Assembly: GCA_038153405.1 (NCBI GenBank)
Contig: JAYOYH010000055.1
Coordinates: forward strand, 1 to 28,972
Source: Gemmatimonadota bacterium
GTDB taxonomy: Bacteria > Latescibacterota > UBA2968 > UBA8231
Direction: 5' to 3'
DNA length: 28,972 bases
Shown here one piece after another: positions 1 through 25,440 of this stretch. The notes under the pieces are model-generated. The model was not told the DNA's origin and ran no database searches. It was given only the letters and a program-made list of their open reading frames with translations. Every line of letters begins with the position of its first letter. The stretch's first letter is position 1. Both the position numbers and the translations under genes were made by a program.

Positions 1-53
<53 letters not shown>

Positions 54-139
54 AGATTTTCGGAAGCTTGCTTCCGACAACATCTACCTAGGTCAGTGCT
101 CTATTGGCCTAGGCCCTGTGCGCGTTATTTGATTTTCAA

Positions 140-216
<77 letters not shown>

Positions 217-225
217 TCAGGCAAT

Positions 226-237
226 TGATCTTTGACA
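226..237 (+). promoter_or_regulatory. Spacer boxA antitermination element
   Basis: TGATCTTTGACA resembles the boxA consensus TGCTCTTTAACA and sits at the usual position, just after the spacer tRNA. Confidence 0.7.
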
Positions 238-345
238 ATCGAATACAGTTCACACCACAAGTTTTGTCAGTTGTAAATAGTTCATCATTTATAACTTGCG
301 AACCTAAGTGATGCGATATCTCAAGTGTTGAAATAGCAATAGATT
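229..345 (+). other. 5' strand of the pre-23S (RNase III) processing stem
   Basis: TCTTTGACAATCGAATACAGTTCACACCA (from 229) is complementary to TGGTGTGAACTGTATTCGGTTGTTAAAGA (~3405-3433). AATAGCAATA (332-341) pairs with TATTGCTATT (3371-3380). Confidence 0.8.
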
Positions 346-348
346 TTT

Positions 349-3366
<3,018 letters not shown>

Positions 3367-3447
3367 ATTTTATTGCTATTCAATTCTCGAGTTAGCGTGT
3401 CACTTGGTGTGAACTGTATTCGGTTGTTAAAGACTTATACTGGATTT

Positions 3448-3564
3448 TTCCGGTGACCATAGCGGAGGGGTCACACCTCTTCCCATTCCGAACAGAGCCG
3501 TTAAGCCCTCCTGCGCCGATGGTACTGCTGGGGTCACCCGGTGGGAGAGTAGGACGTCGCCGGA
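3448..3564 (+). rRNA. rrf: 5S rRNA
   Basis: TCCGGTGACCATAGC...CCCATTCCGAAC...GCCGATGGTACT...GGGAGAGTAGGACGTCGCCGGA; termini are complementary; ~117 nt. Confidence 0.97.
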
Positions 3565-3572
3565 TTATTTTT

Positions 3573-3612
3573 AGCCGCCTGCCCAATTTTTTTGGGCGGG
3601 CGGTTTTTTTTT
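3573..3612 (+). terminator. Rho-independent terminator of the rRNA operon
   Basis: AGCCGCCTGCCCA-loop-TGGGCGGGCGGTT stem followed by a 9-T run. Confidence 0.9.
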
Positions 3613-3647
3613 GGTTTGGGCAAATTCGCCCTCGCGTTCGGCAACGC

Positions 3648-3676
3648 TTGACAATGGATAGGCACCGCAGTAAAAT
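3648..3676 (+). promoter_or_regulatory. Sigma70-type promoter of the EF-G2 gene
   Basis: TTGACA (3648-3653), 17-nt spacer, TAAAAT (3671-3676). RBS AAAGGAG at 3726-3732 precedes ATG 3741. Confidence 0.8.
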
Positions 3677-3740
3677 AACCGTCCCTTCGCAATTGTATCG
3701 ATCAGTTTGAAGCTCTTCCTATGGGAAAGGAGTTTCCATT

Positions 3741-5807
3741 ATGGCATACACCAGTGATCAAATCCGCAATATCGCGCTGTGTGGACATAGCGGGGCTGGC
3801 AAGACGGCCTTATCGGAGGCATTGGCTTTCAATATGGGTCTCGTCAATCGCTTGGGACGCGTCGAAGATGGAACTACGCTGTCCGATTACGATAGCGGTG
3901 AAATTGAGCGGCAAATTTCGCTAAAGATATCTCTGATAAACGGTCAGTGGCAGGATTGCAACTTCAATTTGATGGATACGCCGGGATACGCCGATTTCAT
4001 TCCCGAAGCTCAGGCCGCAATGCGCGTAGCAGATGGATCTATATCGGTTATTGACGCGACGACGGGTCCCGAAATTGGCACGGAGCGCACGTGGAATTTT
4101 GCCGTTCAGTACCGCTTGCCGCGCCTGTTATTCATTAATAAAACGGATCGTTTTGAAGGCGATGTTGATGAACTAGTAGAATCGCTGAGAGCGCGCTTTG
4201 GTCGGGAAGTCGTGACTTTGCAGATACCGGTGAATCCAGGCGAAGGCTTCAATCAAATCATCGACATAGTGGGAATGAAACTGCATGTATACACCGATGG
4301 AAAAAGGGTGGAAAGCGATATACCGGCGGATTGGCAGGACGCAGCAGCGAGTTTGCACGAGCAACTCGTAGAGTCTGTAGCCGAAACAGACGAAGAGCTA
4401 ATGGAAAAGTATTTCAGCGAGGGCGAACTGAGTCGCGGTGAGTTGATTGCGGGATTGAGCAAAGCCGTCAGACAGCAAGCCCTCTTTCCCACTTTTTTTG
4501 GCAATGCCTACGACAATGTCGGTGTAGACCTATTAATGCAGGGGGTCGTCGATTACGTCCCGTCGCCGTTAGAGGCGACCGGCCTCACCTACGAAAATAA
4601 AAGCGGCGAGTCGGTGGAAATGGCTACCGATGGGCCGTTGGCCGCGCTGGTGTTTAAGACGCTCGTCGAGCAACACGTGGGCGAATTGAGTCTGGTGCGC
4701 CTGTTTACAGGAACGCTGAAAAACGGCGACGAGGTGCAGAACAACAGTAGAAAACTCAACGAGCGCATCGGTCAGGTATACCACCTTTGCGGCAACAAAC
4801 GCACGGAAATAGAGGGTGCGCAGATGGGCGATATCATCGCTTTGGTCAAGCTAAAAGACACGCATACCGGCAATACGCTATGCGCCAAGGGCAGCGGCAT
4901 GCAACTGCCCGGCATTGACTACCCCGAACCGCTGATTCGCGTTGCGATCAGTGCCAAGGACAAGGGGGGAGAAGATCGCATGGCGACGGGGTTTGCCCAA
5001 TTGCACGAAGAAGATCCCAGCTTTATCATGCGCTACGACGGTGAAATACGCCAATCGCTTTTACAAGCACAGGGCGAATTGCACTTGGAGACTATCGTCA
5101 AGCGCCTGCGAGAGCGCTTTGGCGTAGAAGTGGACTTGGAATCGCCGCGCATTCCCTATCGCGAGACTGTCCGCGGCAATGCAGAGGGCAATTACCGACA
5201 TAAAAAGCAGTCGGGTGGCCGCGGCCAGTTTGGCGAGGTCGGGCTCAACATAAGCGCGCGGGGGCGCGGCGAGGGCTTTGGATTTGAGAGCAAGGTTGTC
5301 GGCGGCAATATTCCCAACAACTTTATTCCGGCCATAGAGAAGGGCATCGTCGAGACACTAGAAGTGGGGCCGGTAGCCGGCTACAACGTGATAGATGTAG
5401 GCGTTACGGTATTAGACGGCAAATACCACGCCGTCGACTCTGACGAAGTCTCGTTTAAAATAGCGGGTTCGAATGCGTTTAAAGATGCGTTTTTAAAGGC
5501 CAACCCCATCTTGTTGGAGCCGATTTACAGCCTGGAAATAACCGTGCCCGAAGAATATATGGGCGATGTGATGGGTGACCTGTCGTCGCGCCGCGGCCGC
5601 ATCAGCGGCATGGATGCCGAAGGGCACTTACAGGTTATTCACGCCGAAGCACCGTTGGCTGAGATCGATCGCTACGCCACCATTTTGCGCTCCATGACGC
5701 ACGGCAGGGGATTTCACGCGCAGAAATTTGAGCGATATGAAGAAGTTCCCGGCGATATAATGGCCAAGGTGATAGAAGCAGCCAAGAAGGAAAAGGAAGC
5801 GGCCTGA
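3741..5807 (+). CDS. fusA: Elongation factor G paralogue (EF-G2 type)
   Basis: 688 aa. G1 GHSGAGKT, switch I ERQISL, G3 DTPGY, G4 NKTD, domain IV KQSGGRGQFG and YHAVDS, domain V PILLEPI..GDVMGDLSSRRG. It lies outside an rpsL-rpsG-fusA-tuf operon. Confidence 0.95.
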   Translation: MAYTSDQIRNIALCGHSGAGKTALSEALAFNMGLVNRLGRVEDGTTLSDYDSGEIERQISLKISLINGQWQDCNFNLMDTPGYADFIPEAQAAMRVADGSISVIDATTGPEIGTERTWNFAVQYRLPRLLFINKTDRFEGDVDELVESLRARFGREVVTLQIPVNPGEGFNQIIDIVGMKLHVYTDGKRVESDIPADWQDAAASLHEQLVESVAETDEELMEKYFSEGELSRGELIAGLSKAVRQQALFPTFFGNAYDNVGVDLLMQGVVDYVPSPLEATGLTYENKSGESVEMATDGPLAALVFKTLVEQHVGELSLVRLFTGTLKNGDEVQNNSRKLNERIGQVYHLCGNKRTEIEGAQMGDIIALVKLKDTHTGNTLCAKGSGMQLPGIDYPEPLIRVAISAKDKGGEDRMATGFAQLHEEDPSFIMRYDGEIRQSLLQAQGELHLETIVKRLRERFGVEVDLESPRIPYRETVRGNAEGNYRHKKQSGGRGQFGEVGLNISARGRGEGFGFESKVVGGNIPNNFIPAIEKGIVETLEVGPVAGYNVIDVGVTVLDGKYHAVDSDEVSFKIAGSNAFKDAFLKANPILLEPIYSLEITVPEEYMGDVMGDLSSRRGRISGMDAEGHLQVIHAEAPLAEIDRYATILRSMTHGRGFHAQKFERYEEVPGDIMAKVIEAAKKEKEAA

Positions 5808-13282: not shown

Positions 13283-15253
13283 ATGTGTCGCATCGCCTGG
13301 ATCATTCTTCTCGTCTTCTCCTACGGCGTTGAGGCGCAGCAAAAGTACAGCCTCAATTTCAATCGCTCGAGCACGCGCACAAAGTGGAGCCATCGCCTGC
13401 CGAGCTGGCAGTACAAGGTGCCCGTGCGCTTGGCGGCTACCGGCGACTCTACCTCTCAGCTCAGCATCTCTACCTCGGCCAGTATGAGCTTTACGCTCGA
13501 CGAGCGCAACGATCGCAAGACGTGGCAGGACAATGCCTCTCTTGGATCGACGGTTAACTATCCCATCTTAGGGCCCAAGGCGACGATTGGCATCGGTGCC
13601 AATATGTCGCTGCGAAGCTCCACGCTGCAAAAGCAGAAGCTGCGCGACCAGACATTTAACTTTCGCTTTCAGTACAAGCCAATTGACGAGGGGCGCTTTG
13701 ACGATCTATCCGTTAGCGTAACGCCGGGACTCATAACGAAGACGCGCGACAGTCGCGCTAATCTGGACAGCACAATTGAGGAAACCGGGGTTCAGTATAA
13801 TGCCTCGCTTCGCGTGTCGCCCGAAATCAAATTAGCTGGAAAAAAACTGGGGAACTCGCTGTCGTTCAGTAAGCGCGACAATACGCTGAAAAACAACAAG
13901 GATCGCAGCGAGAGCTTTAGTAGCAGTGCCAACTATACGCTGCCCGGCGGCGTTCGCACCAGCATCAGCTTTACGGAATCTCGTTCCGAAGTCGGTATCA
14001 CGCGATCGGTCGTTGGAGAAAGCGAAGTCGAAGGAATTGTGCGCCGCGATACGAGCATTGCTGCGGAAATATCGCAGAGCCGCAACACCGGTTTTAGTTC
14101 AAACATCGATTTCGATGTTGGCCGTTTTAAGGTGCGCAGCAGCGCTTCGTATGGGCAAAACCAGCGCACCAATACGGCCAGCGCCGAACAGGACGCCGGC
14201 AATCGCTACTTTGGAACGGATAGAGAAAGTCGCAGTTGGAACTGGCAATCGGAGGTTTCGGGTAAACTGGTAGAGCCCGTGTTATGGAATTCTAAACTGC
14301 GCTTTGAGTCGAGCGACCAGCGCAACCTAGCCGTGCGCGTGCTCGACGTGGGGCGCTGTGCCAGTCACTTTGTCACGTCGCCCGATGGAACGTGCCGCGA
14401 TCCCAGCTCAGACTTGGATAATGGACGTCTGTTTCTCAACACCTCGCTCACGTGGACGCTGACGGAAAAGCACTCGTTAAAACTATCGACTTGGGCGGAT
14501 ATAAAGCGCGCGGAGAATCCAGGCGCGCCCGAGCAAAATCGCGATACCTACAGCAATAGTTTTACTTTGCGCTACGACGGCTCTCTGGCTGACGATGCGC
14601 GAGTCAATATCGAAGTGCGCAACTCCTTTTTGCACCGCATCAACATGGCAGCTACGCGTTCGGGAGATAACTCGCGTAACCGCGATATCGTTCTCGATAT
14701 CGGCAGCAGCTATCAGCGCTTAGGGATTAGCATATCGCATAACTTTAGCATATCGGCCAAGCGAACCATTTTTGACTTTGATCGCCAACTCAATCGAACC
14801 ACCTCTGCGCGCAAGAGCAATATTCGCCGCGGTTGGAGCATGAATCACACGGCAAATCGCAAGGTATTAGCACACTTGCGCCTAAACGGACGCTACTCGT
14901 ATTCGGCCGATGATTTCGGCACGTTGGTGGTAGAGAACGGGGCGCAAATCGTCGAAGAGGATAACAACCGCCACAGCGTTGGTGTTGGACTGTCGTATTC
15001 GCCCATTCAGGCCCTGTCCATAACGACGTCCTATAACTTTTTGCTGGATCGCCGCTGGGATCACGAATACGCTGGAGGTCAGGAAGCGCGCGTGCAGGAC
15101 GCCGGTCGCCGCAATAGAAACCGATCGCTTAGCTTTAACGTCAGCTACTCGCCGACCGACAATCCCAATCAATTGTCGCTGCGGGCAAGTCGTTCGCGGC
15201 AGCGCAGCGGCACCTTTGATACATTTAGCGTTACCTACTCGCGAACTTTATAG
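13283..15253 (+). CDS. Hypothetical exported protein, probable outer-membrane beta-barrel
   Basis: Sec signal peptide (MCRIAWIILLVFSYGVEA|Q). S/T/N/R-rich with alternating hydrophobic strands throughout. C-terminal strand TFSVTYSRTL. Confidence 0.7.
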   Translation: MCRIAWIILLVFSYGVEAQQKYSLNFNRSSTRTKWSHRLPSWQYKVPVRLAATGDSTSQLSISTSASMSFTLDERNDRKTWQDNASLGSTVNYPILGPKATIGIGANMSLRSSTLQKQKLRDQTFNFRFQYKPIDEGRFDDLSVSVTPGLITKTRDSRANLDSTIEETGVQYNASLRVSPEIKLAGKKLGNSLSFSKRDNTLKNNKDRSESFSSSANYTLPGGVRTSISFTESRSEVGITRSVVGESEVEGIVRRDTSIAAEISQSRNTGFSSNIDFDVGRFKVRSSASYGQNQRTNTASAEQDAGNRYFGTDRESRSWNWQSEVSGKLVEPVLWNSKLRFESSDQRNLAVRVLDVGRCASHFVTSPDGTCRDPSSDLDNGRLFLNTSLTWTLTEKHSLKLSTWADIKRAENPGAPEQNRDTYSNSFTLRYDGSLADDARVNIEVRNSFLHRINMAATRSGDNSRNRDIVLDIGSSYQRLGISISHNFSISAKRTIFDFDRQLNRTTSARKSNIRRGWSMNHTANRKVLAHLRLNGRYSYSADDFGTLVVENGAQIVEEDNNRHSVGVGLSYSPIQALSITTSYNFLLDRRWDHEYAGGQEARVQDAGRRNRNRSLSFNVSYSPTDNPNQLSLRASRSRQRSGTFDTFSVTYSRTL

Positions 15254-16256: not shown

Positions 16257-18089
16257 ATGCTCGTTGCCAGAACGGTTGGCATATTCCTCGTTGCTCTTGT
16301 TACTACGGTCCATGCCCAAGAGGATGACGCTTGGAATGCCGTGCAGAATATCCTCATGAATACGCAGGATATTGTCGTGCTCGACGGCACGGAGAAGGCA
16401 CCGCTGCGCTATGCTGGAGAAGGCGATCCGCAGTATGGCGACTGGATGGTGCGCCATATGCTGTCCGATCCGCAGAGCTTCAATCCGTATACGTCGAGTG
16501 ATGCCGGCGCTTCTACCGTGATGCAGTACATCTTCGATACGCTGCTCTACGCAGACAACGAGCCGCCCTACCAGTTAAAGGGCAAAGTCGCCAAGAGCTA
16601 CCCGCAAGTTTCTGCAGACAAGTTGTCCTACACATTTGCGCTGAGAGAAGACGTGTATTTTTCCGACGGTCGTCCGCTGACGGCTGAGGATGTGCTGTTC
16701 AGCATGAAAGTCATCCAGAATCCGCGCGTATTGGCTCCGCATATGCGCAACTACTATTCGGCCGTCAAAAACGTCGTTACGAATGGGGACGGGTCAATTA
16801 CGTTCGAGTGCAATGAGCCCTACTTTCGCAACGACCTTTCACTTGGTTCCTTCGAAATTTTGCCTAGGCATTTTTACGATCCGGAAGGATTGTTGGATCC
16901 CGTTCCCATCACCTCGCTCATCGACGGCTCGTGGGAAACGGGGCCGCACAAAGAGCGGATCGAGCGTTTCGCCGATCAGTTTAACCAGGACTTCAATCGC
17001 AAACTCATGGGTTCGGGTCCCTATGCCATCGAGGATTTTGATCGCGATATCGTCACGCAGCAAAAAGTTGTCCTGACGCGCAACGCCGAATACTGGGCGC
17101 TGGAAGGGGGCGCTTTGCCCCCTTCGGGTTACGTCGATAAGATAGTCTTCAAGATCATTAACAATACTGATGCCGCCTTTATCGAGCTGACCAACGGCAA
17201 TATCGACTATCACGCGCTGCGTCCGCTGGAGTTTAAGGAGAAAAGCTGGTCAGACGACTTCAACAAACGCTTTCTCAAAGGCGTCGAGTACTCGGGTGGG
17301 TATACCTACATAGGTTGGAATAACACGCATCCCATTTTTGCGGATCGGCGCGTGCGTCAGGCTATGACGCATTTGACCGATCGCCAGAGCATGGTGGAAA
17401 ACCTGCTCTTTGGCCTGGCCGAGACCGTTGAAGGGCCGATTAGCAAGTTTCGCCCCGAATACAACCACGAACTGCAGCCGTACGGCTACGATTACGAACG
17501 CGCCCTTGACCTGCTCGACGAAGCGGGATGGGGCGACGCCGATGACGACGGCATTCTCGACAAAGAGATCGACGGCGAGAAGGTCGATTTTCGCTTTGAA
17601 CTGCTCATCAATTCCGGCAACCAGATCCGCAAGGATATTGCGCTGACCCTGCAGAGCGAATTGGCGGATGTGGGCATCGACTGCCAGGTGCGCGAGCTCG
17701 ACTGGTCCATCTTTCTGCAGCGCGTTAAGAGTAAGGACTTCGCTGCGATGGTGCTAGGCTGGAGCAGCGGTGTGAAGTTTGCTCCCGATGTATACCAGAT
17801 CTGGCACTCTTCGCAGGCCGAGGAACAGGGCTCAAATGCGATCAGTTTTATACATGCCGAAGCCGATAGCCTCTTGGAGGCGTATCGCCGCGAATTCGAT
17901 CCGGACAAGCGCATTGACCTCTACAAACGCTTTCAGAAAATCGTTTACGACGAACAGCCCTATACCTTCCTGTGGAAGTCGCGCGTAGCCCAGGCCTACA
18001 GCCGCCGCTTTGCCGGGGTGAACTGGTACCCGGCCGGTGCCGAAGTGGCCGAGTGGTGGGTCGACCAAGACGATCGGGTCTACCGCTAA
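16257..18089 (+). CDS. ABC-type peptide/nickel substrate-binding protein (SBP family 5), periplasmic
   Basis: RBS AAGGAG at 16244-16249 before ATG 16257. SPI signal MLVARTVGIFLVALVTTVHA|Q. Motifs P.SFNP, YTFALREDVYFSDGRPLTAEDV.FS, GSGPY, F.DRRVRQA, YDYERA..LLDEAGW, DADDDG. Confidence 0.9.
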   Translation: MLVARTVGIFLVALVTTVHAQEDDAWNAVQNILMNTQDIVVLDGTEKAPLRYAGEGDPQYGDWMVRHMLSDPQSFNPYTSSDAGASTVMQYIFDTLLYADNEPPYQLKGKVAKSYPQVSADKLSYTFALREDVYFSDGRPLTAEDVLFSMKVIQNPRVLAPHMRNYYSAVKNVVTNGDGSITFECNEPYFRNDLSLGSFEILPRHFYDPEGLLDPVPITSLIDGSWETGPHKERIERFADQFNQDFNRKLMGSGPYAIEDFDRDIVTQQKVVLTRNAEYWALEGGALPPSGYVDKIVFKIINNTDAAFIELTNGNIDYHALRPLEFKEKSWSDDFNKRFLKGVEYSGGYTYIGWNNTHPIFADRRVRQAMTHLTDRQSMVENLLFGLAETVEGPISKFRPEYNHELQPYGYDYERALDLLDEAGWGDADDDGILDKEIDGEKVDFRFELLINSGNQIRKDIALTLQSELADVGIDCQVRELDWSIFLQRVKSKDFAAMVLGWSSGVKFAPDVYQIWHSSQAEEQGSNAISFIHAEADSLLEAYRREFDPDKRIDLYKRFQKIVYDEQPYTFLWKSRVAQAYSRRFAGVNWYPAGAEVAEWWVDQDDRVYR

Positions 18090-18099
18090 AAGCGACTAA

Positions 18100-18525
18100 G
18101 TGGGCGAAACACATGCGGCGGATGGACCGCTCTCTTGGACGGTCCATCCGCTGATGCACGAGAGAGCGGGCAAGACGCTGGCGTTGATCAGCGCAGTAGG
18201 CGCAACCTGTTGCGCAGTAGCGCTTAGCTTCGAGCACGTCGGTTACGGCGTACTATCGTTCTGCATACTCGTCGGTTCGCTGGCGAGCTATTTCTTTCCC
18301 TCCCGTTACACGCTCGACGAAGTCGGCGTTTCCCGCGTCCTGTTGGGGCGCCGAAGCGCTCGTTCGTGGTCCGAGTTCCGCCGGGTTGATGCGCGCGACA
18401 ACGGGCTGTTTCTCAGCCCTTTTGCAAGCACCAGTCGCCTCGACTCATTTCGCGGCATATTTCTTCCATTTCACAAAAACCGCGACCAAGTTGTATATTA
18501 CGTCCAACGCTATGTCAATAATTGA
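18100..18525 (+). CDS. Hypothetical membrane protein (2 TM helices plus a small PH-like beta domain)
   Basis: LSWTVHP, two hydrophobic segments, then FFPSRYTLDEVGV...RSWSEFRR...LFLSPF..SRLDSFRG. GTG start; the stop overlaps the next gene. Confidence 0.75.
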   Translation: MGETHAADGPLSWTVHPLMHERAGKTLALISAVGATCCAVALSFEHVGYGVLSFCILVGSLASYFFPSRYTLDEVGVSRVLLGRRSARSWSEFRRVDARDNGLFLSPFASTSRLDSFRGIFLPFHKNRDQVVYYVQRYVNN

Positions 18526-18859
18526 GCGCATTAAAGCACAGTGGCAGCACGCTTTTGCCATTGCCGACTCGAATAGAGTGTGGGACGAAGCCGACCGGGA
18601 ACTGGTCGACAAACTCGCTTCGTTTATCGTGCGGCGCGGTTTGAGCATGCCGGCGGTCATGGTTCTCGAATCGAGTCGCCCCGTCAATTTTCTCGGCAGC
18701 CAACTACTGGCCTTTCTCGAGCCCTTCGCTACGCTGGTTTTTTCGCGGGCTGAATACGGGCGTTTCGTGCGTCTGCTGGAGCAGCGCAATTGCGTCGACT
18801 TCATTATGGATGCTATTGCGAAATTGGAATCGGAAAGCGAAAAAAACGCACATGGATAA
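18512..18859 (+). CDS. Hypothetical protein (~115 aa, helical, possibly membrane-associated)
   Basis: ATG 18512 overlaps the upstream gene. Motif IVRRGL..PAVMVLES.RP.NFLGSQ..AFLEPF...LLEQR. The stop overlaps the next ATG (ATGGATAA). Confidence 0.75.
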   Translation: MSIIERIKAQWQHAFAIADSNRVWDEADRELVDKLASFIVRRGLSMPAVMVLESSRPVNFLGSQLLAFLEPFATLVFSRAEYGRFVRLLEQRNCVDFIMDAIAKLESESEKNAHG

Positions 18860-20645
18860 AATTGACGTAGTTATCGCAACCGACTGCGGCAGCACGACGA
18901 CTAAAGCCATCCTCATAGAGAAGAAGGAAGACGGCTATCATCAGACGTTTCGCGGCGAGGCACCGACGACGGTGGAGGCCCCCTTCGAAGACGTGACGCG
19001 CGGCGTGCTCAACGCCATACAAGAGGTCGAGGAGCTATCTGGTCGGCAGATTCTCGACGGCGAGCACATCATTACGCCAGCAGAGGGACAGCGCGGCGTC
19101 GATATATACATTTCCACCAGCAGCGCGGGCGGCGGTTTGCAAATGGTCGTTTCGGGTGTGGTCAAATCGATGACGGGCGACAGCGCGCAGCGCTGTGCGC
19201 TGGGGGCCGGTGCCATCGTTATGGACGTGCTGGCGGCCAACGACGGCCGGCGGCCACATCAGAAAATTGAGCGCATTCGCCAGCTCCGTCCCGACATGGT
19301 GCTGCTGGCCGGTGGCACCGACGGCGGTACGGTAAGCCACGTAGTCGAACTGGCAGAATACGTTGGCGCTGCCGATCCCAAGCCGCGCTTTGGCAGCGGC
19401 TTTAAGCTGCCGGTCATTTACGGTGGCAATACGGAAGCGCGTGCAGAAGTCGAAGCCGTCCTGGGCGAGAAGACGGCATTGACCCTGACGGAGAATATTC
19501 GCCCCATATTGGAGCGGGAGAATCTGGGGCCTGCGCGTCAGGTTATTCACGACCTGTTCTTGGAACACGTAATGGCGCAGGCGCCGGGCTATAGAAAGCT
19601 GATGGACTGGACCGGTGCGCCGATTATGCCGACGCCGGGCGCGGTCGGCGAGATCATGCAGACGATTGCTCGCCAGATGGGGATCAACGTGGTAGGCGTC
19701 GATATCGGCGGTGCGACTACAGATGTATTCAGCGTGTTCTCCGAGGTATTCAACCGCACGGTCAGCGCTAACTTGGGTATGTCCTACAGTATCTCCAACG
19801 TCTTGGCCGAAGCGGGACTGGAACAGATTCTGCGCTGGGTGCCCTTCCAAATCGAAGAGGCTGACCTGCGCGACCGCATAAAGAACAAGATGATCCGTCC
19901 CACGACCATTCCACAACTTCTACAGGAGTTGCAGGTCGAACAGGCCATCGCGCGCGAGGCGCTGCGCCTGGCCTTTGTGCAGCATCGGGAACTAGCGGTT
20001 GGGCTTAAGGGCGTGCAAATCGAGCGAACGCTTTCAGATGTATTTAATCAGAACGACGAGGTTGATAGCCTAGTACAGATGATGGACCTCGACCTGCTCG
20101 TCGGCAGCGGCGGCGTCTTGTCGCACGCGCCGCGCCGCGCACAGTCGGCGGCCATGCTCATCGATGCCTTCCAACCCGAAGGCGTAACGCGTTTGGCCGT
20201 CGACAGCATCTTTATGATGCCGCACTTGGGCGTGCTATCCACGGTAAACGAGGAGGCGGCAACGCAGGTTTTTGAACGCGACTGCCTCATCTACCTGGGC
20301 ACGTGTGTCGCTCCTAAGGGATCGGGCAAAGCGGGCGAGACCTGTCTCAAATACTCTGTGGATCTACCCGCAGGGCGGCGCGAAGGATCGCTCTGCGTTG
20401 GCCAATTGCATCTGCTGGAACTGGACGCTGATGAAGAGGGTGAAATCGTGCTCATGCCCGCGCGCGACTGGGACGTCGGCGGTGGCCCCGGACAGGAAGT
20501 GCGCACGGTCGTGCGCGGCGGCGTCGTTGGTCTGATCATAGACGGTCGTGGGCGTCCGATTCAAATTGCCGAATCGGAAGAGGAGCGCCTCGCGCAAATG
20601 ACCGCTTGGCATCGCACGATGAACCTCTACGGCGGAGATCGATAA
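18852..20645 (+). CDS. GlmL/MutL-like ('glutamate mutase L') ASKHA-fold ATPase, 597 aa
   Basis: Phosphate-1 DCGSTTTK, SSAGGGL, inserted alpha/beta domain PDMVLLAGGTDGG, MPTPGAV, phosphate-2 VDIGGATTDVFS, RTVSANLGMSYS, adenosine motif LVGSGGVLSHA. Confidence 0.85.
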   Translation: MDKIDVVIATDCGSTTTKAILIEKKEDGYHQTFRGEAPTTVEAPFEDVTRGVLNAIQEVEELSGRQILDGEHIITPAEGQRGVDIYISTSSAGGGLQMVVSGVVKSMTGDSAQRCALGAGAIVMDVLAANDGRRPHQKIERIRQLRPDMVLLAGGTDGGTVSHVVELAEYVGAADPKPRFGSGFKLPVIYGGNTEARAEVEAVLGEKTALTLTENIRPILERENLGPARQVIHDLFLEHVMAQAPGYRKLMDWTGAPIMPTPGAVGEIMQTIARQMGINVVGVDIGGATTDVFSVFSEVFNRTVSANLGMSYSISNVLAEAGLEQILRWVPFQIEEADLRDRIKNKMIRPTTIPQLLQELQVEQAIAREALRLAFVQHRELAVGLKGVQIERTLSDVFNQNDEVDSLVQMMDLDLLVGSGGVLSHAPRRAQSAAMLIDAFQPEGVTRLAVDSIFMMPHLGVLSTVNEEAATQVFERDCLIYLGTCVAPKGSGKAGETCLKYSVDLPAGRREGSLCVGQLHLLELDADEEGEIVLMPARDWDVGGGPGQEVRTVVRGGVVGLIIDGRGRPIQIAESEEERLAQMTAWHRTMNLYGGDR

Positions 20646-21766
20646 TGGCCCACGCCTACACACCGGGTCTGCGCGTCACGCCGCACGCGGTGGTGCGCAA
20701 GGATCGCAAGCTGCCTCTCCAAGGGCAGGTCGTCGTCGCCCAAGGCGACGCGGTGCGCCGCGATCAGGTGGTCGCGCGGACCGATCTGCCCGGCGATGTC
20801 GTAGCGCTCAATCTGGTCAACAGGTTGGGGTGTGCGCCGGCCGAAGTGCCTCGATACATGCTGCACAAAGAGGGCGATGCGGTGCGCGAGGGCGAGCCGC
20901 TGGCTGCGACCCAGCCGTTTATTAAGTGGTTTAAAACTACGGTCAATTCGCCTGCTACGGGGGTGGTCGAGAGCGTGTCTGCGGTGACGGGCCAGGTCAT
21001 ATTGCGCAAGGAACCTCGTCCCGTAGAGGTGTTGGCCTATGTAGACGGCCAAGTGGTCGAGCTCTTCGAAGGCGAAGGCGTTAGCGTCGAGACGCGCGGC
21101 GCCTTTATACAGGGAATATTCGGCGTTGGCGGTGAATGCTGGGGTCCCCTGCACATGGCCGTTGGGTCGCCGGGCGAATTGTTGACTGCGCTGGGCGCAG
21201 AGTGCGCCGGTAAGATCGTTGTCGTGGGCAGTTTGGTTACGCTGGATCTCATTGAGATCGCGCGAAAGGTAGGCGCGATTGGACTGGTCGGTGGCGGTCT
21301 ACGCGACCAAGATTTGCGCGCCCTGCTGGGCTACGATCTCGGCGTAGCGATTACTGGCGATGAGGACATTGGTCTGACGGTGGTTGTTACGGAGGGTTTT
21401 GGCGAGGTGGCCATAGCCCACAAGACGTTCGATATCCTAAAAGCGTGTGAGGGCAAAGAAACATCCATTTCTGGCGCGACGCAGATTCGCGCCGGCGTGC
21501 TGCGGCCGGAGATCATCGTGCCCGATCCAGAGGGTGACCAACGCCGCTCCGAAGTCGACAGAAGAGAGAAGCACGGCATGGATATCGGCGATCTATTGCG
21601 CGTTATCCGCGTGCCGTACTTTGGCCGTATTGGCCGCGTTAGCGCGCTGCCAGCCGAGCTGCAAGAGGTCGAATCGGGCGCGCTTGTGCGCGTGCTTGAA
21701 GTCGAGTTTGAAAGCGGCGAGAAGGCCGTCGTTCCGCGCGCCAACGTCGAGATGATCGAAGAATGA
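20645..21766 (+). CDS. Hypothetical soluble protein with barrel-sandwich-hybrid motifs and a C-terminal KOW/SH3-like domain, 373 aa
   Basis: TAATG stop/start coupling to the ATPase. VAQGDAVRRDQVVA and HKEGDAVREGEPLA...SPATGVV are biotinyl/lipoyl-like motifs. IGDLLRVIRVPYFGRIGRV is KOW-like. Confidence 0.8.
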   Translation: MAHAYTPGLRVTPHAVVRKDRKLPLQGQVVVAQGDAVRRDQVVARTDLPGDVVALNLVNRLGCAPAEVPRYMLHKEGDAVREGEPLAATQPFIKWFKTTVNSPATGVVESVSAVTGQVILRKEPRPVEVLAYVDGQVVELFEGEGVSVETRGAFIQGIFGVGGECWGPLHMAVGSPGELLTALGAECAGKIVVVGSLVTLDLIEIARKVGAIGLVGGGLRDQDLRALLGYDLGVAITGDEDIGLTVVVTEGFGEVAIAHKTFDILKACEGKETSISGATQIRAGVLRPEIIVPDPEGDQRRSEVDRREKHGMDIGDLLRVIRVPYFGRIGRVSALPAELQEVESGALVRVLEVEFESGEKAVVPRANVEMIEE

Positions 21767-21788
21767 GCCATTTAGCAATGAGGTCTCC

Positions 21789-23006
21789 ATGTTAAACAGG
21801 GCGCTGCTGTGGGCGATTGCACTCGCCGCGCTATCTACTGCCGCCGTCGAGAGCCAGACTCAACTGCCGCCCATTGAGGGCTTTGAGGCGTTTGACACGC
21901 CCAGCGATGCTGGGGGCAGCATTACGTTAGTGTGGCCTCGCATCGCCGATGCGCCGGCGGGTTCGACCTATCGGGCGTTTATCGCAGCAAAGCGCGAGGG
22001 ACCGTACTACTTGGCGGCTGAGGTGTATAGCAATGCCAATTTACAGTCCGAAGATCCAGGGGCATTTGGCTACGGCGACGAGGCGAAAGCCGCCCACTTT
22101 TTGCGCATCGCACAGTATGAGACAGGCGCTGGCATGGCGTCGTTAGAAAATGGTGCGACCTATCACGTGCGCCTGGAATTGCATCACGGCAAGGTCTCGA
22201 CGCGCACGGCAGTAATTACCGCTGTCGCCGAGGGCAACTATTTCAACTGGGAAAAGCTGAACAACGCCGCACTCGGCGTGCTCTTATCGGTGCTCATCAT
22301 CGGCTACATCAGCTTGGCGCGGCGCCGCGCGCTATATATCCGTCGCATTGGCGGCTTGGAGGCGCTCGACGAGGCGCTAGGACGAGCAACGGAGATGGGC
22401 AAGCCGGTGCTCTTTATACACGGCCTGCGCGATATGAGCCAAATTTCGACCATTGCCGCCGTCAACATTCTCGGGCGCGTGGCCCGGCGAACGGCTGAAT
22501 ACGATACGGCTCTGCGCGTGGTCGCCCCCGACCCCGTCGTGATGTCTGTCAGCCAGGAGACGGTGCAGGCCTCGTATTTTGAAGCCGGTCGCCCCGACGC
22601 GTTTAATCCCGATCACGTATTTGTCGCCGGCACCGAACAGTTTAGCTATGCGGCGGCTACCGAGGGCATTATGGTTCGCGAGCGGCCGGCCGCCCACATA
22701 ATGATGGGCTATTTCTACGCCGAGTCGCTGCTGCTGGCCGAGACCGGCTCGACGACGGGGGCGATTCAAATCGCCGGCACGGACGCCTTCACGCAATTGC
22801 CGTTCTTCGTGACGACCTGCGACTATACGCTGCTCGGCGAAGAGCTCTATGCAGCCAGCGCCTACCTGTCGCGCGAACCCAAACTGCTGGGCAGTCTAAA
22901 GGGACAGGATGCGGGCAAGGCGATACTGATCGTCGTTATCGTCGCAGGAGCGCTGCTGGCGACGCTCGATATTCCGTTTCTCACTCACTTGTTTACCCCG
23001 CATTGA
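21789..23006 (+). CDS. Membrane protein: signal peptide, FN3-like domain, TM, alpha/beta domain, TM (recalls DUF6754)
   Basis: Signal MLNRALLWAIALAALSTAAVES; FN3-like start P...EAFDTPSDAGGSITLVW; TM followed by RRR; IRRIGGLEALDEALGRATEMGKP...QLPFFVTTCDYTLLGEELYAASAYLS..P; C-terminal TM. The DUF name is from memory and needs verifying. Confidence 0.8.
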   Translation: MLNRALLWAIALAALSTAAVESQTQLPPIEGFEAFDTPSDAGGSITLVWPRIADAPAGSTYRAFIAAKREGPYYLAAEVYSNANLQSEDPGAFGYGDEAKAAHFLRIAQYETGAGMASLENGATYHVRLELHHGKVSTRTAVITAVAEGNYFNWEKLNNAALGVLLSVLIIGYISLARRRALYIRRIGGLEALDEALGRATEMGKPVLFIHGLRDMSQISTIAAVNILGRVARRTAEYDTALRVVAPDPVVMSVSQETVQASYFEAGRPDAFNPDHVFVAGTEQFSYAAATEGIMVRERPAAHIMMGYFYAESLLLAETGSTTGAIQIAGTDAFTQLPFFVTTCDYTLLGEELYAASAYLSREPKLLGSLKGQDAGKAILIVVIVAGALLATLDIPFLTHLFTPH

Positions 23007-23016
23007 GGAGCGCGCG

Positions 23017-23685
23017 ATGATTTTTTTCAGCCGCATGCTGCCCGTAGTGGTCGCCTTTTGCTTTGGTGTATTGGGCATTGGCATTTACTACGTGCCGCAC
23101 GCAGCGGCGCAGAACCTGGAACGCGAGTTGGCTCTGTGGCTGCGCATCGTCTTTGCCTTCTCTTACTTGTTGGGTTTGTACAGCTTGCTCAACCTGCACT
23201 GGCAGCGCATTCGCCAGCGCGTTGCGGGGTGGGGATACAGCGTCGTCGTATACGTCGGTTTTGGCCTTATGATGCTCTTTGTCGTCTACAACGACGGCCA
23301 GGGCCCGTTTGCCGCTCAGGCCGAGGGGACGGCAGCCGAAAACGGCTATCAATGGCTCTTTGAATACGTGCACGTTGCCTGCTCGTCGACCATGTTTTCC
23401 ATTCTCGCCTTTTTTATCGCTTCTGCTGCTTACCGCACCTTTCGCGCACGCACGCCGGAGGCGGCCCTGCTGCTGGTTGCGGCGGTCGTGGTGATGTTGG
23501 GGCGCGTGCCTATCGGCGCCTATATATCCGAATACGTGCCGGCCGCGGCCGATTGGCTGCTCAACGTGCCCAACCTAGCGGCTAAACGCGGCATCTTGTT
23601 GGGCGTGTCATTGGGTGCCATCGCTACCTCGCTGCGCATTATCTTTGGCATTGAGCGCTCCTATTTGGGAGGAGGCGAAGAATGA
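23017..23685 (+). CDS. Hypothetical polytopic membrane protein (~6 TM)
   Basis: RBS GAGGAG. Six hydrophobic segments with basic loops QRIRQR and YRTFRART. C-terminal AAKRGILLG..LG....LRIIFGIER. Confidence 0.85.
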   Translation: MIFFSRMLPVVVAFCFGVLGIGIYYVPHAAAQNLERELALWLRIVFAFSYLLGLYSLLNLHWQRIRQRVAGWGYSVVVYVGFGLMMLFVVYNDGQGPFAAQAEGTAAENGYQWLFEYVHVACSSTMFSILAFFIASAAYRTFRARTPEAALLLVAAVVVMLGRVPIGAYISEYVPAAADWLLNVPNLAAKRGILLGVSLGAIATSLRIIFGIERSYLGGGEE

Positions 23686-24497
23686 TACAGTGGCTGATGA
23701 ATATAGATCGGCGCATTATCTTCATCTTCGTATTTTTCGGCGTCGCGCTGCCCCTCTTGTCCAATGTATTTCTGCCGATAAAGCCCACCCGCGATGTGGT
23801 GGCTGTATACGAGGAGTTAGAGAAAGTAGCCGAAGCCGGCGGCACCGTCCTGCTCAGCTTCTCCTACGGCGCTAGCACCGTGCCAGAGATGCAGCCCATG
23901 GCGCGGGCCATCCTGCGCCACTGCTTTAGCCGCGATATCAAGGTCGTCGCCGTTTGTCTGTGGCCCGAAGCGCCGGGTTTGGCGCAGCAGGTGCTCGAAG
24001 AGATCGGCACGGAATTTGGCAAAACCTATGGCGAGGACTACGCGTTTCTCGGCTACAAACCGGGCAATTTCAGCGTCGTGCTTAATATGGGGCAAGATTT
24101 CCACGACGCCTTTCCGCAGGATAACTGGGGCACTGCCATCGAAGACCTGCCGCTGACGCGCAATTTGCGGACGCTGCGAGACTTCGACTTTGTATTCGAC
24201 CTGGCCGCTGGCGACTCCATTGAGTTTTGGTGGATTCCCTATGGGCAGGAGAAGTACGGCTTTCCCTTTGCCGGCGGCTGCACGGCCGTTATGGCGCCCG
24301 ATCTATTTCCTTTTTTGCAGTCGCGGCAAATGGTGGGGCTCTTGGGAGGATTGGCCGGTGCGGCGGAGTATGAAACGCTGGTCGGCAAGCAGGACAAGGC
24401 GACGGCCGGCATGAGCGCGCAGTCGATGGCCCATCTGATTATCGTCGTATTTATCGTCTTCGGCAACATAGCCTTTTTCCTCTCTCGCCGGCGCTAA
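23682..24497 (+). CDS. Hypothetical membrane protein (TM, alpha/beta domain, TM)
   Basis: ATGA overlap and RBS GGAGGAGG. DRR then N-terminal TM. Motifs EMQPMA, YGEDYAFLGYKPG, GCTAVMAP..FPF.QS.Q..GLLGGL.GAAEYE, MSAQS.AHL. C-terminal TM followed by RRR. Confidence 0.85.
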   Translation: MIQWLMNIDRRIIFIFVFFGVALPLLSNVFLPIKPTRDVVAVYEELEKVAEAGGTVLLSFSYGASTVPEMQPMARAILRHCFSRDIKVVAVCLWPEAPGLAQQVLEEIGTEFGKTYGEDYAFLGYKPGNFSVVLNMGQDFHDAFPQDNWGTAIEDLPLTRNLRTLRDFDFVFDLAAGDSIEFWWIPYGQEKYGFPFAGGCTAVMAPDLFPFLQSRQMVGLLGGLAGAAEYETLVGKQDKATAGMSAQSMAHLIIVVFIVFGNIAFFLSRRR

Positions 24498-24520
24498 TAC
24501 GCAGTCAGGGAGACTCTAAT

Positions 24521-25249
24521 TTGACGCGCGATACCTACATATTTCTGGCTCTGGTGTTGACCTTTGCCTTCGTAAATGGCGTGCTGCTGGCCAACGGTTC
24601 CCTCGCCGCCGATTGGAATAGCTTAGGCATTATGGTCGCCGCCGGTCTGACGCTGGCACTCTACAGTTTTCTCTACAAGGACAATCCGCTGTTTAAGGCC
24701 GCAGAAAATATCTACGTTGGCGTTGCAGCAGCGTATGTCTTTGGTCAGTACTGGTATCAGACGATCTACGGTGAAATTTTTGTTCGGCTGAAAGCGCTGG
24801 GCGGGGAAGACAGTACGCAGGGCGACTGGTGGCTGTTGGCGCCCACTCTGCTGGGGCTGCTGATGCTGACGCGCTTCTCGCGGCGCTTCGGTTGGCTGAG
24901 TCGCTTCTCCTTTGCTTTCTTCGTTGGGCTGGGAGCCGGGCTGACGATACCGCGCACTATTTCTTCCTTTATACTGGCGCAGATTGAGCCGACGCTGCAG
25001 CCGCTGAGTTGGAGCGTCGAAGGCCTGAACCTGCTGATTATTTTGGTCGGCGTGGTCGCTGTACTCGTCTATTTTTTCTTCTCGGTAGAGCACTCCGGCG
25101 TCGTGGGCAAGGTGTCGCGCGTGGGTATATGGTTTCTCATGGTTTCGTTTGGCGCCTCGTTCGGCTACACGATAATGGCTAGGCTGTCCCTGCTGATCGG
25201 ACGCGTCACATTTCTTCTAGATGACTGGCTTCATTTGATGACAAATTGA
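24521..25249 (+). CDS. Hypothetical polytopic membrane protein (~7 TM)
   Basis: TTG start after RBS AGGGAG. Motifs LTLALYSFLYKDNPLFK.AE.IYVG, YFFFS.EH.G, FGASFGYTIMAR.SLLIGR..FL..WL. Confidence 0.85.
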   Translation: MTRDTYIFLALVLTFAFVNGVLLANGSLAADWNSLGIMVAAGLTLALYSFLYKDNPLFKAAENIYVGVAAAYVFGQYWYQTIYGEIFVRLKALGGEDSTQGDWWLLAPTLLGLLMLTRFSRRFGWLSRFSFAFFVGLGAGLTIPRTISSFILAQIEPTLQPLSWSVEGLNLLIILVGVVAVLVYFFFSVEHSGVVGKVSRVGIWFLMVSFGASFGYTIMARLSLLIGRVTFLLDDWLHLMTN

Positions 25250-25317: not shown

Positions 25318-25343
25318 ATGGGGGATAGAGGTCCCATTTTTTT
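25318..25343 (+). terminator. Possible weak intrinsic terminator ending the membrane-protein operon
   Basis: ATGGGG-loop-TCCCAT followed by a T-run. It is preceded by a second hairpin, TACTCAA..ACGTGC-GCGA-GCACGT.TTGAGTA (25265-25303). Confidence 0.45.
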
Positions 25344-25440
25344 CATTGAATTTTTTTAAAAAATTGCCATCTTCTACTAACTTTTGACAAATAATTTAGT
25401 ATCAAACAGAAAGGGAAAATCGCTTTCTCTATTCCCTCCG

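Follow-up and report, generated by a model that had tools for sequence, protein, structure and literature searches.

A long GlmL-like ATPase and a four-gene DUF6754 membrane module in a conserved bacterial gene system: a candidate ATP-driven importer

The system considered here lies at positions 16257-25249 of a contig from a Latescibacterota genome that is 93% complete. The window, meaning the whole stretch of DNA that was analysed, comprises positions 1-28,972 of contig JAYOYH010000055.1. The conserved core of the system is seven genes: OrfB, a long GlmL-like ATPase, an SBHM-KOW protein and the membrane proteins M1 (DUF6754), M2, M3 and M4. A family-5 solute-binding protein (SBP) and a small protein, OrfA, precede them in the window.

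Several described systems resemble parts of this core. Group II energy-coupling factor (ECF) transporters use one shared energising module for several scattered membrane modules, and comprise P-loop ATP-binding cassette (ABC) ATPases, EcfT and S-components. A shared energiser with several modules is also seen here, at the level of genes only, but no core gene has an EcfA/A', EcfT or S-component family match. PilM/GspL, FtsA and MreB are actin-fold proteins on inner-membrane platforms, where they scaffold or polymerise. Here, likewise, a protein of the ASKHA (acetate and sugar kinases, Hsp70, actin) fold is predicted to dock on a membrane complex, but the system is not accompanied by genes for pili, secretion, division or elongation. 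RCK-gated potassium systems (Ktr, Trk, MthK) and transhydrogenase domain III share with M1 a Rossmann-type domain beside transmembrane (TM) helices on the inner face (Z 9-10), but this is a generic fold match only, without a pore or domain II family match. Opp/Dpp (PepT) ABC importers are where the SBP and the oppBC and oppDF genes interleaved in relatives belong, but there is no ABC permease among M1-M4, and the core ATPase is of a different type. We know of no transporter that draws its power from an ASKHA-fold ATPase.

GlmL/MutL and Or-4 of ornithine degradation belong to the same ASKHA family as the core ATPase and share its three nucleotide motifs and an inserted alpha/beta domain with a GGTDGG loop. 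The window ATPase differs from them in being about 120 residues longer, in falling in a separate clade and in scoring below all family cut-offs. It also differs from GlmL/MutL in lacking mutase genes, in having fixed OrfB and SBHM-KOW partners and in tracking DUF6754. MutL/GlmL is described as the reactivating chaperone of glutamate mutase (PMC4682846). The reactivases of diol and glycerol dehydratase, as described in PMC7674605, comprise an Hsp70-like ATPase with insert and swivel domains, remodel their client in an ATP-driven manner by swapping a subunit, and free the spent cofactor. They serve here as a model for the proposed pulling step. Their clients are soluble B12 enzymes, whereas for the window ATPase a membrane client is predicted. 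Here the probable swivel domain also belongs to a separate protein, and no sequence match was obtained. On the features tested, the core is not a member of GlmL proper, of the ABC systems or of the ECF systems; by analogy, it would combine the action of a reactivase with an energiser shared in the manner of ECF transporters. It is a real, conserved, ATPase-coupled membrane system that is apparently undescribed: no published work on DUF6754 or on the seven genes was found by a search that covered few subscription journals and no supplements.

The seven-gene core and its distribution

Relatives were collected by a GTDB scan, in which at least 616 of 622 pattern matches were confirmed. Locus counts are from the best 80 of these, made up of 14 Latescibacterota-type loci (2 placed by likeness) and 66 others, with flanks of varying length. 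They came from Latescibacterota, Scalindua and other Planctomycetota, Nitrospira, Methylomirabilis, WOR-3, Poribacteria and Edwardsbacteria. The order M1-M4 was scored on loci with at least 3 kb of downstream sequence and the ATPase trio (OrfB, ATPase and SBHM-KOW) on loci with at least 5 kb upstream. M2-M3-M4 follow M1 in 68/68 assessable loci, and the complete trio was present in 41/57. The first-pass annotation, made from the letters of the window alone, had looked to co-occurrence of the six genes from the ATPase to M4 across GTDB, independently of glmE. This co-occurrence was found, and it includes OrfB as well. OrfA was found in 1/66 loci outside Latescibacterota.

Twenty stretches of the same class, from 18 genomes, were compared separately (L with a number denotes a fetched stretch of a relative, G002 and G006 are relative genomes, and C19 is a contig of the source assembly). 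M1-M4 were found in 20/20 (M4 is broken in L026). Of the other genes, that for the KOW protein was found in 19, that for the ATPase in 18 and that for the SBP in 6. One of the two stretches lacking the ATPase is cut by a contig end and the other is a second module. More than one membrane module was present in six loci of the best 80. For 9 fetched modules with no nearby ATPase gene, 8/9 genomes encode one long GlmL elsewhere; the system thus consists of an ATPase trio and at least one four-gene membrane module.

Surveys by phylum covered 140 Latescibacterota, 121 Nitrospirota, 81 WOR-3 and 201 Planctomycetota genomes. In WOR-3, DUF6754 was matched in 75/81 genomes, the KOW protein in 74/81 and MutL in 72/81. 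Two or more DUF6754 matches (2-5) were recorded in 69 of the 75 and a single MutL match in 61 of the 72, where family matches per genome are not the same as exact copy numbers. Because one ATPase gene often accompanies 2-5 DUF6754 genes, a fixed ATPase:module stoichiometry is doubtful, and with it the stoichiometric complex first envisaged for this locus. The KOW protein was found in 64/201 Planctomycetota genomes. The M1 family comprises approximately 8000 clusters at 90% identity (among 8000 candidates scored) and the M3 family 5288 clusters at 50% identity (E ≤ 0.001). Plasmids gave no DUF6754 match. Two departures from the usual layout were also recorded. M3 is duplicated within or beside the module in L028, L030 and L129, and some WOR-3 M1 genes stand in tandem. 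In WOR-3 stretches L187, L188, L190, L196 and L198 the KOW gene, often apart from the ATPase gene, lies two genes upstream of accA.

Features of the window, all on the + strand, were as follows.

16257..18089, +: SBP, family-5 solute-binding protein (PF00496 match); Opp-type ABC importer part, outside the core
18100..18525, +: OrfA, 141 amino acids, two TM segments; accessory, in Latescibacterota and few other loci
18512..18859, +: OrfB, soluble protein of 115 amino acids, core ATPase partner; no Pfam/NCBIfam family; 5' of the ATPase gene across phyla
18852..20645, +: long GlmL-like ASKHA ATPase, 597 amino acids; PF13941 over residues 7-478, then about 120 C-terminal residues
18882..18905, +: ATPase phosphate-1 motif DCGSTTTK (residues 11-18)
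19311..19328, +: ATPase GGTDGG loop in the inserted alpha/beta domain; part of the predicted M1 contact
19701..19724, +: ATPase phosphate-2 motif DIGGATTD (residues 284-291)
20007..20027, +: ATPase KGxQxxR segment, kept in the long clade and absent in short mutase-linked GlmL; predicted M1 contact
20103..20114, +: ATPase adenosine motif GSGG (residues 418-421)
20645..21766, +: SBHM-KOW protein, 373 amino acids, soluble; barrel-sandwich hybrid, probable RraA/PA-type swivel domain, C-terminal KOW
21789..23006, +: M1; signal peptide (probable), outer domain of variable length, DUF6754 (TM, Rossmann-type domain predicted inside, TM)
22380..22400, +: M1 GRATEMG motif (residues 198-204), centre of the predicted ATPase docking site
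23017..23685, +: M2, 222 amino acids, approximately six TM segments, no family
23682..24497, +: M3, 271 amino acids; TM, soluble domain predicted outside, TM; no family
24521..25249, +: M4, 242 amino acids, polytopic membrane protein, no family
25318..25345, +: terminator-like hairpin and T run 3' of M4 (-6.9 kcal/mol)

The ATPase, the membrane proteins and their predicted contact

The ATPase matches PF13941 at 430 bits and falls below each NCBIfam cut-off: 221 of 475 bits for GlmL (NF040745), 205 of 600 for Or-4 (NF040744) and 157 of 204 for TIGR01319. Its three ASKHA motifs are intact, as first read, and DCGSTTTK, DIGGATTD and GSGG are invariant in 32/32 aligned long GlmL proteins. A quick tree was made from 41 proteins (25 long GlmL drawn at random, 9 divergent, 6 short and the window ATPase). 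In this tree, which is unrooted, drawn at the midpoint and silent on the order of events, long and short GlmL separate with a Shimodaira-Hasegawa-like approximate likelihood ratio (SH-aLRT) of 100.

In Latescibacterota, DUF6754 was found in 122/140 genomes and MutL in 122/140, with both in 121, neither in 17 and discordance in 2, the latter being drafts of 400 and 930 contigs. The identical 19/121 Nitrospirota genomes carry DUF6754 and MutL. GlmE was found in 3/140 Latescibacterota genomes, and both full-length cases adjoin a second, short GlmL. No GlmE was found in the source genome at its 93% completeness; glmS was not searched separately. The ATPase tracks DUF6754 and is independent of glutamate mutase. 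A strict tie to B12-dependent mutases, which the first-pass annotation had raised against its own proposal, was looked for in these counts and is not what they give. The joint absence of ATPase and DUF6754 within three phyla points to a shared function and is hard to explain otherwise.

Other GlmL arrangements were noted in the fetched stretches. A divergent long GlmL is paired with a KOW-like partner in 9 WOR-3 and Planctomycetota stretches (L174-L182) with no adjacent membrane module. This partner is KOW-less and seems to carry two barrel-sandwich repeats, and in L174 the two proteins are fused in one open reading frame (ORF) of 1013 amino acids. A 970-codon frame in L173 was considered as a further ATPase-KOW fusion and rejected as an overlapping open frame. 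In one genus (L153-L157) short GlmL paralogues stand beside a B12-binding gene and a DegT-type aminotransferase gene. A MutE match was obtained in L153 only; the short GlmL proteins of L154-L157 may be decayed or may serve another enzyme.

Modelling of the ATPase with M1, part of a check proposed at the outset, gave a predicted interface between the two. The ATPase with the DUF6754 region scored 0.62 and the best of 3 controls 0.00. A mark of 0.62 was reached by 116/157 solved complexes and 2/215 mismatched pairs, counts that are only rough (own alignments). Runs agreed in at least 89% of contacts, with a partner pLDDT (predicted local distance difference test) of at least 74. Sequence searches of the PDB with the ATPase, KOW protein, M1 and M3 gave nothing significant, and because the ATPase and M1 have no PDB sequence relative, recall of a solved complex is unlikely. 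On the ATPase side the modelled contact comprises residues 103-108, 129-130, 154-163, 217 and 220 of the inserted domain together with residues 386-400; on the M1 side it comprises the membrane-proximal EAxGRATEMG helix and the TxCDYT stretch. Conservation of the 23 M1 interface residues is 0.88 against a background of 0.74 (naive resampling, p 0.0008). ATPase residues N130, H163, R217, K386, G387, Q389 and R392 are kept in 23-25 of 25 long GlmL proteins and 0/6 short ones. The model supports docking of the ATPase on the inner Rossmann domain of M1.

None of the membrane proteins had been given a family signature at first. This still applies to M2, M3 and M4; M1 matches PF20539 (DUF6754) at 376 bits. 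No Pfam/NCBIfam family reaches its cut-off for OrfA, OrfB, M2, M3 or M4, and in an Atlas search with M3 30/30 matches were unnamed. The DUF6754 region was modelled (pLDDT 88.9, predicted TM-score (pTM) 0.83) as an alpha/beta domain of six strands between two TM helices. A wide structure search matched the domain to Sir2A (Z 10.4, root-mean-square deviation (rmsd) 3.8, 142 aligned), LpxB (10.2), a short-chain dehydrogenase/reductase (10.2) and KtrC (10.1). A second look gave Sir2Af2 (Z 12.2, rmsd 3.4, 140 aligned) and transhydrogenase domain III (Z 9.7, rmsd 3.1, 135 aligned). The RCK domains of MthK (Z 10.0) and TrkA (Z 9.9) were also among the tied matches. Foldseek returned one weak match under E 0.001 (PcrB, TM-score 0.26), and an identity with LOG or the molybdenum-cofactor carrier was not upheld as a top match in follow-up comparisons. 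As a separate observation, a Macro-domain gene lies directly after M4 in L170 and L171, which would be of note if the Sir2-like domain of M1 binds ADP-ribose.

M1 has basic residues after its first TM segment, and M3 has R10 and R11 (62/63 each) before its first TM segment and a basic C-terminus. Because of this charge pattern, the positive-inside rule predicts that the M1 domain faces in and the M3 domain faces out. M1 also has an invariant Cys (region 191-200) and several invariant Glu/Asp residues. The outer domains of M1 and M3 vary in length, and one long M3 relative has a weak CARDB match (E 1e-6). The secondary structures of M1 and M3 look alike and 88-92 columns align in register, which hints at homology, though at E values (0.12 and 0.086) that are not significant. 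No homology of M2 and M4 was found (E 0.18 and 0.1).

In the SBHM-KOW family, 42 members gave matches to Biotin_lipoyl (31), RnfC_N (30), KOW (9) and PA (2). The window protein itself has weak matches to RraA (E=0.033) and Spt5 KOW (E=0.087), and its single-sequence fold is of low confidence (pLDDT 37.7). Biotin and lipoyl carriers hold their modified lysine in an MKM or DKA hairpin. That motif is absent from the SBHM domain, although a lysine following the hairpin tip is frequent; K97 is present in 34/42 members (Arg in 4) and in at least 93% of a second set of 42. The tip of the SBHM hairpin is hydrophobic in all members inspected (PFIKWF, FFGLF).

Solute-binding protein, cluster layout and flanking genes

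The SBP had been regarded as an orphan binding protein of the system. Instead, it is most likely an ordinary component of an Opp-type ABC importer, outside the core. In L031, L065 and L071 the gene order is ATPase, SBP, oppB, oppC, KOW, M1-M4, oppD, oppF, and L071 has all five Opp components (family-5 SBP, two permeases, two ATPases). The SBP was present in 7/14 Latescibacterota-type loci and 0/66 others. An oppB orthologue was found in 4/4 same-genus genomes tested, at 77-100% identity to the G006 query. A close permease orthologue was not found in the source assembly, which has only oppB paralogues at 33-39% identity. In G002, oppB and oppC are found on the strand of M4, some 9 kb downstream of it and past the TonB receptor gene. 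The G002 stretch is matched by the window as far as the window's last base, and the other 8 kb of it has no counterpart in the source assembly, so the oppB/oppC stretch is missing because the contig ends. Absence of ABC partners, as first noted, holds on this contig, where no core gene has a Pfam/NCBIfam match to an ABC ATPase or BPD_transp-type permease; it does not hold for relatives. The interleaving of Opp genes hints at a shared nutrient theme in Latescibacterota.

The gene cut by the contig end (28734-28972, +) encodes approximately 1180 amino acids in G002, and its first 600 residues have no Pfam match at 1e-8. In G002 (L138, 3906-12068) it is followed by an unassigned protein of 344 amino acids, a TPR protein, oppB and oppC. 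At positions 60000-69000 of C19 (L213), which also hold fatty-acid genes, rnc and an lplA-like gene are followed by an oppD/oppF pair that lacks permeases. In other families rnc-lplA flanks the cluster. This region is probably what is left of an ancestral locus that the cluster has since moved away from.

The nine co-oriented ORFs at 16257-25249, from the SBP to M4, and their eight junctions were confirmed as first described: +10, -14, -8 (ATGGATAA), -1 (TAATG), +22, +10, -4 (ATGA) and +23 nucleotides. The run does not begin at the SBP as had been supposed, since ilvE ends 23 nucleotides before it and a gene for a protein of 656 amino acids ends 56 nucleotides before ilvE. OrfA, with two hydrophobic segments, is probably a fifth membrane protein where four had been counted. 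The hairpin and T run reported after M4 is present, but such sites are not enriched in the window (15 against 17.2 expected by chance from shuffles). A promoter scan of the window found 5 against 7.7 expected. Parts of the region are matched by short contigs from 4 metatranscriptome runs of 2 studies, mostly at 99% identity or more and with more over the TonB receptor gene; these contigs show neither co-transcription nor level.

The protein of 656 amino acids (13283-15253, +) has an abundance of beta-strand patterns, a probable signal peptide and no Pfam/NCBIfam match. It is probably an outer-membrane barrel and is kept before ilvE in 11 loci of the family. Further upstream, window positions 1-3700 have no long ORF; a translated fragment resembles 23S rRNA read as protein, and this is probably the end of an rRNA operon. 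An elongation factor G-like protein (3741-5807, +) heads a housekeeping run of yebC, ruvCAB, tsaB, rimI, a MalK-type ATPase gene, holB and rsmA.

Raw counts of neighbours were made in 114 cluster-bearing stretches, which include repeats of one genome and close kin. lplA lies within 5 kb in 12/114, lipA is present in 5 Nitrospirota loci and gcvP in 5. In several Nitrospirota loci lipA directly precedes OrfB, and fabF-rnc-lplA lies upstream of the cluster in Latescibacterota. WOR-3 has further gcvP and accA neighbours, with accA downstream of a lone KOW gene in 5 loci. Other neighbours comprise aminotransferase and urocanase genes. Together the neighbours lean towards amino-acid and lipoate metabolism, a weak hint at the cargo. 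ilvE and the downstream TonB receptor, once read as a functional fit, are lineage-local neighbours (12 and 6 cluster-bearing loci). A Memo-like gene stands after M4 in 25 Nitrospirota loci (L082-L135).

Predicted function and alternatives

The seven genes very probably make up one machine. Given one machine, we put importer function at an even chance, and ATP-driven import, as proposed in the first-pass annotation, is still the likeliest function that we infer. The fuller proposal, a solute importer of a new kind in which modules share an ATPase, and for which transport and cargo are predicted, stands slightly short of even.

As proposed, M1-M4 would form one complex. The ATPase would grip the GRATEMG helix of M1 through its inserted domain and the clade-specific KGxQxxR segment, and each ATP cycle would pull M1, much as a reactivase pries a subunit off its client. 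Movement of the inner domain of M1 might then work M2 and M4, which would form the path, while the outer domain of M3 would catch cargo. SBHM-KOW and OrfB may help the ATPase to cycle, like the swivel domain and beta subunit in dehydratase reactivases. One ATPase set would serve modules that differ in specificity, like the shared energiser of group II ECF transporters, and the presence of several modules per ATPase suggests such differences. The cargo would probably be small organic nutrients such as amino acids, peptides or lipoate-like acids. A joint reading, less likely than not, is that an actin/Hsp70-fold ATPase descended from reactivases of B12 enzymes pulls the inner Rossmann handle of interchangeable four-subunit modules, in which M1 and M3 are opposed ancient paralogues forming a pseudo-symmetric alternating-access core. 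In it, uncultured phyla, Nitrospira and anammox bacteria would take up substrates of the lipoate or glycine pathways, which are named because lplA, lipA and gcvP recur as neighbours.

Several observations weigh against import. Nitrospira and anammox bacteria are mainly autotrophs. Their single-copy systems, and near-universal presence in WOR-3, fit a housekeeping envelope role equally well. The surveyed genomes are related, and co-occurrence counts are not independent events. No neighbour is common to all phyla. On its model, the M1 domain is a generic Rossmann fold whose tied matches give no family, ligand or function, and M2 and M4 match no transporter family. Conservation of the ATPase interface (0.85 against 0.78, p 0.07) is not clearly higher than background, and the GGTDGG contact loop is common to long and mutase-linked short GlmL.

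The same seven-gene machine might instead handle lipids or envelope building blocks by ATP-driven flipping, extraction or export, which we consider unlikely. The hydrophobic SBHM tip could dip into the membrane, fatty-acid and lipoate genes (fabF-rnc-lplA, lipA, accA) recur nearby, and the system is present in 74-75 of 81 WOR-3 genomes of 1.2-3.3 Mb. Its patchiness in Nitrospirota (19/121) and Planctomycetota (KOW in 64/201) speaks against a universal envelope need, however, while several divergent modules per genome suit several cargoes and the housekeeping neighbours may be inherited gene order.

Somewhat less probable again is that M1-M4 are a membrane-bound cofactor-dependent or ion-translocating enzyme, from which the ATPase, keeping its ancestral reactivase role, releases spent cofactor. 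The chaperone role of MutL/GlmL and the swivel domain of the glycerol dehydratase reactivase, as given in PMC4682846 and PMC7674605, agree with this. So do the likeness of the M1 domain to Sir2 and transhydrogenase domain III, its invariant Cys and acidic residues, and the divergent ATPase-KOW pairs of L174-L182 that lack an adjacent membrane module. Yet no enzyme fold stands out, M2 and M4 have no conserved Cys or metal motif, and the modules are not accompanied by an enzyme gene; the M1 Cys region 191-200 falls within the predicted contact, which can itself explain the conservation there.

A gated ion channel or transmembrane sensor, in which the ATPase would regulate an RCK-like domain, is an improbable reading of the unit. 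The RCK domains of MthK, TrkA and KtrC are among the tied M1 matches and the outer domains of M1 and M3 vary in length, but the RCK likeness is not above that of other Rossmann folds, M2 and M4 match no channel family, and the system is accompanied by neither an output domain nor a regulator gene.

Delivery of peptides to the machine by the family-5 SBP, in place of ABC permeases, is very improbable. In 13 Latescibacterota loci the SBP gene lies next to the cluster or within it, and the source assembly lacks a close permease orthologue. Against this, all four same-genus genomes have an oppB-type orthologue, the G002 copy of which lies in a stretch unassembled here, both permeases directly follow the SBP in L031, L065 and L071, C19 has a permease-less OppD/F pair, and none of the 66 loci outside Latescibacterota has the SBP.

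An ordinary mutase reactivase with membrane genes as chance neighbours, to which the 430-bit PF13941 match might point, is scarcely credible and already largely refuted: GlmE is rare, and both of its full-length copies adjoin another, short GlmL; long and short GlmL split at SH-aLRT 100; and the ATPase scores under each of the three NCBIfam cut-offs.

Annotation of long PF13941 proteins as helpers of glutamate mutase should be avoided. A direct mutational test is offered by the predicted GRATEMG / GGTDGG / KGxQxxR contact, and occurrence in Nitrospira and anammox bacteria means that the system can be tested there. It is near-universal in WOR-3 and present in most Latescibacterota sampled. If the shared-ATPase importer is correct, it would add a class of primary transporter, in which a cofactor-release chaperone has been reused as a membrane motor.

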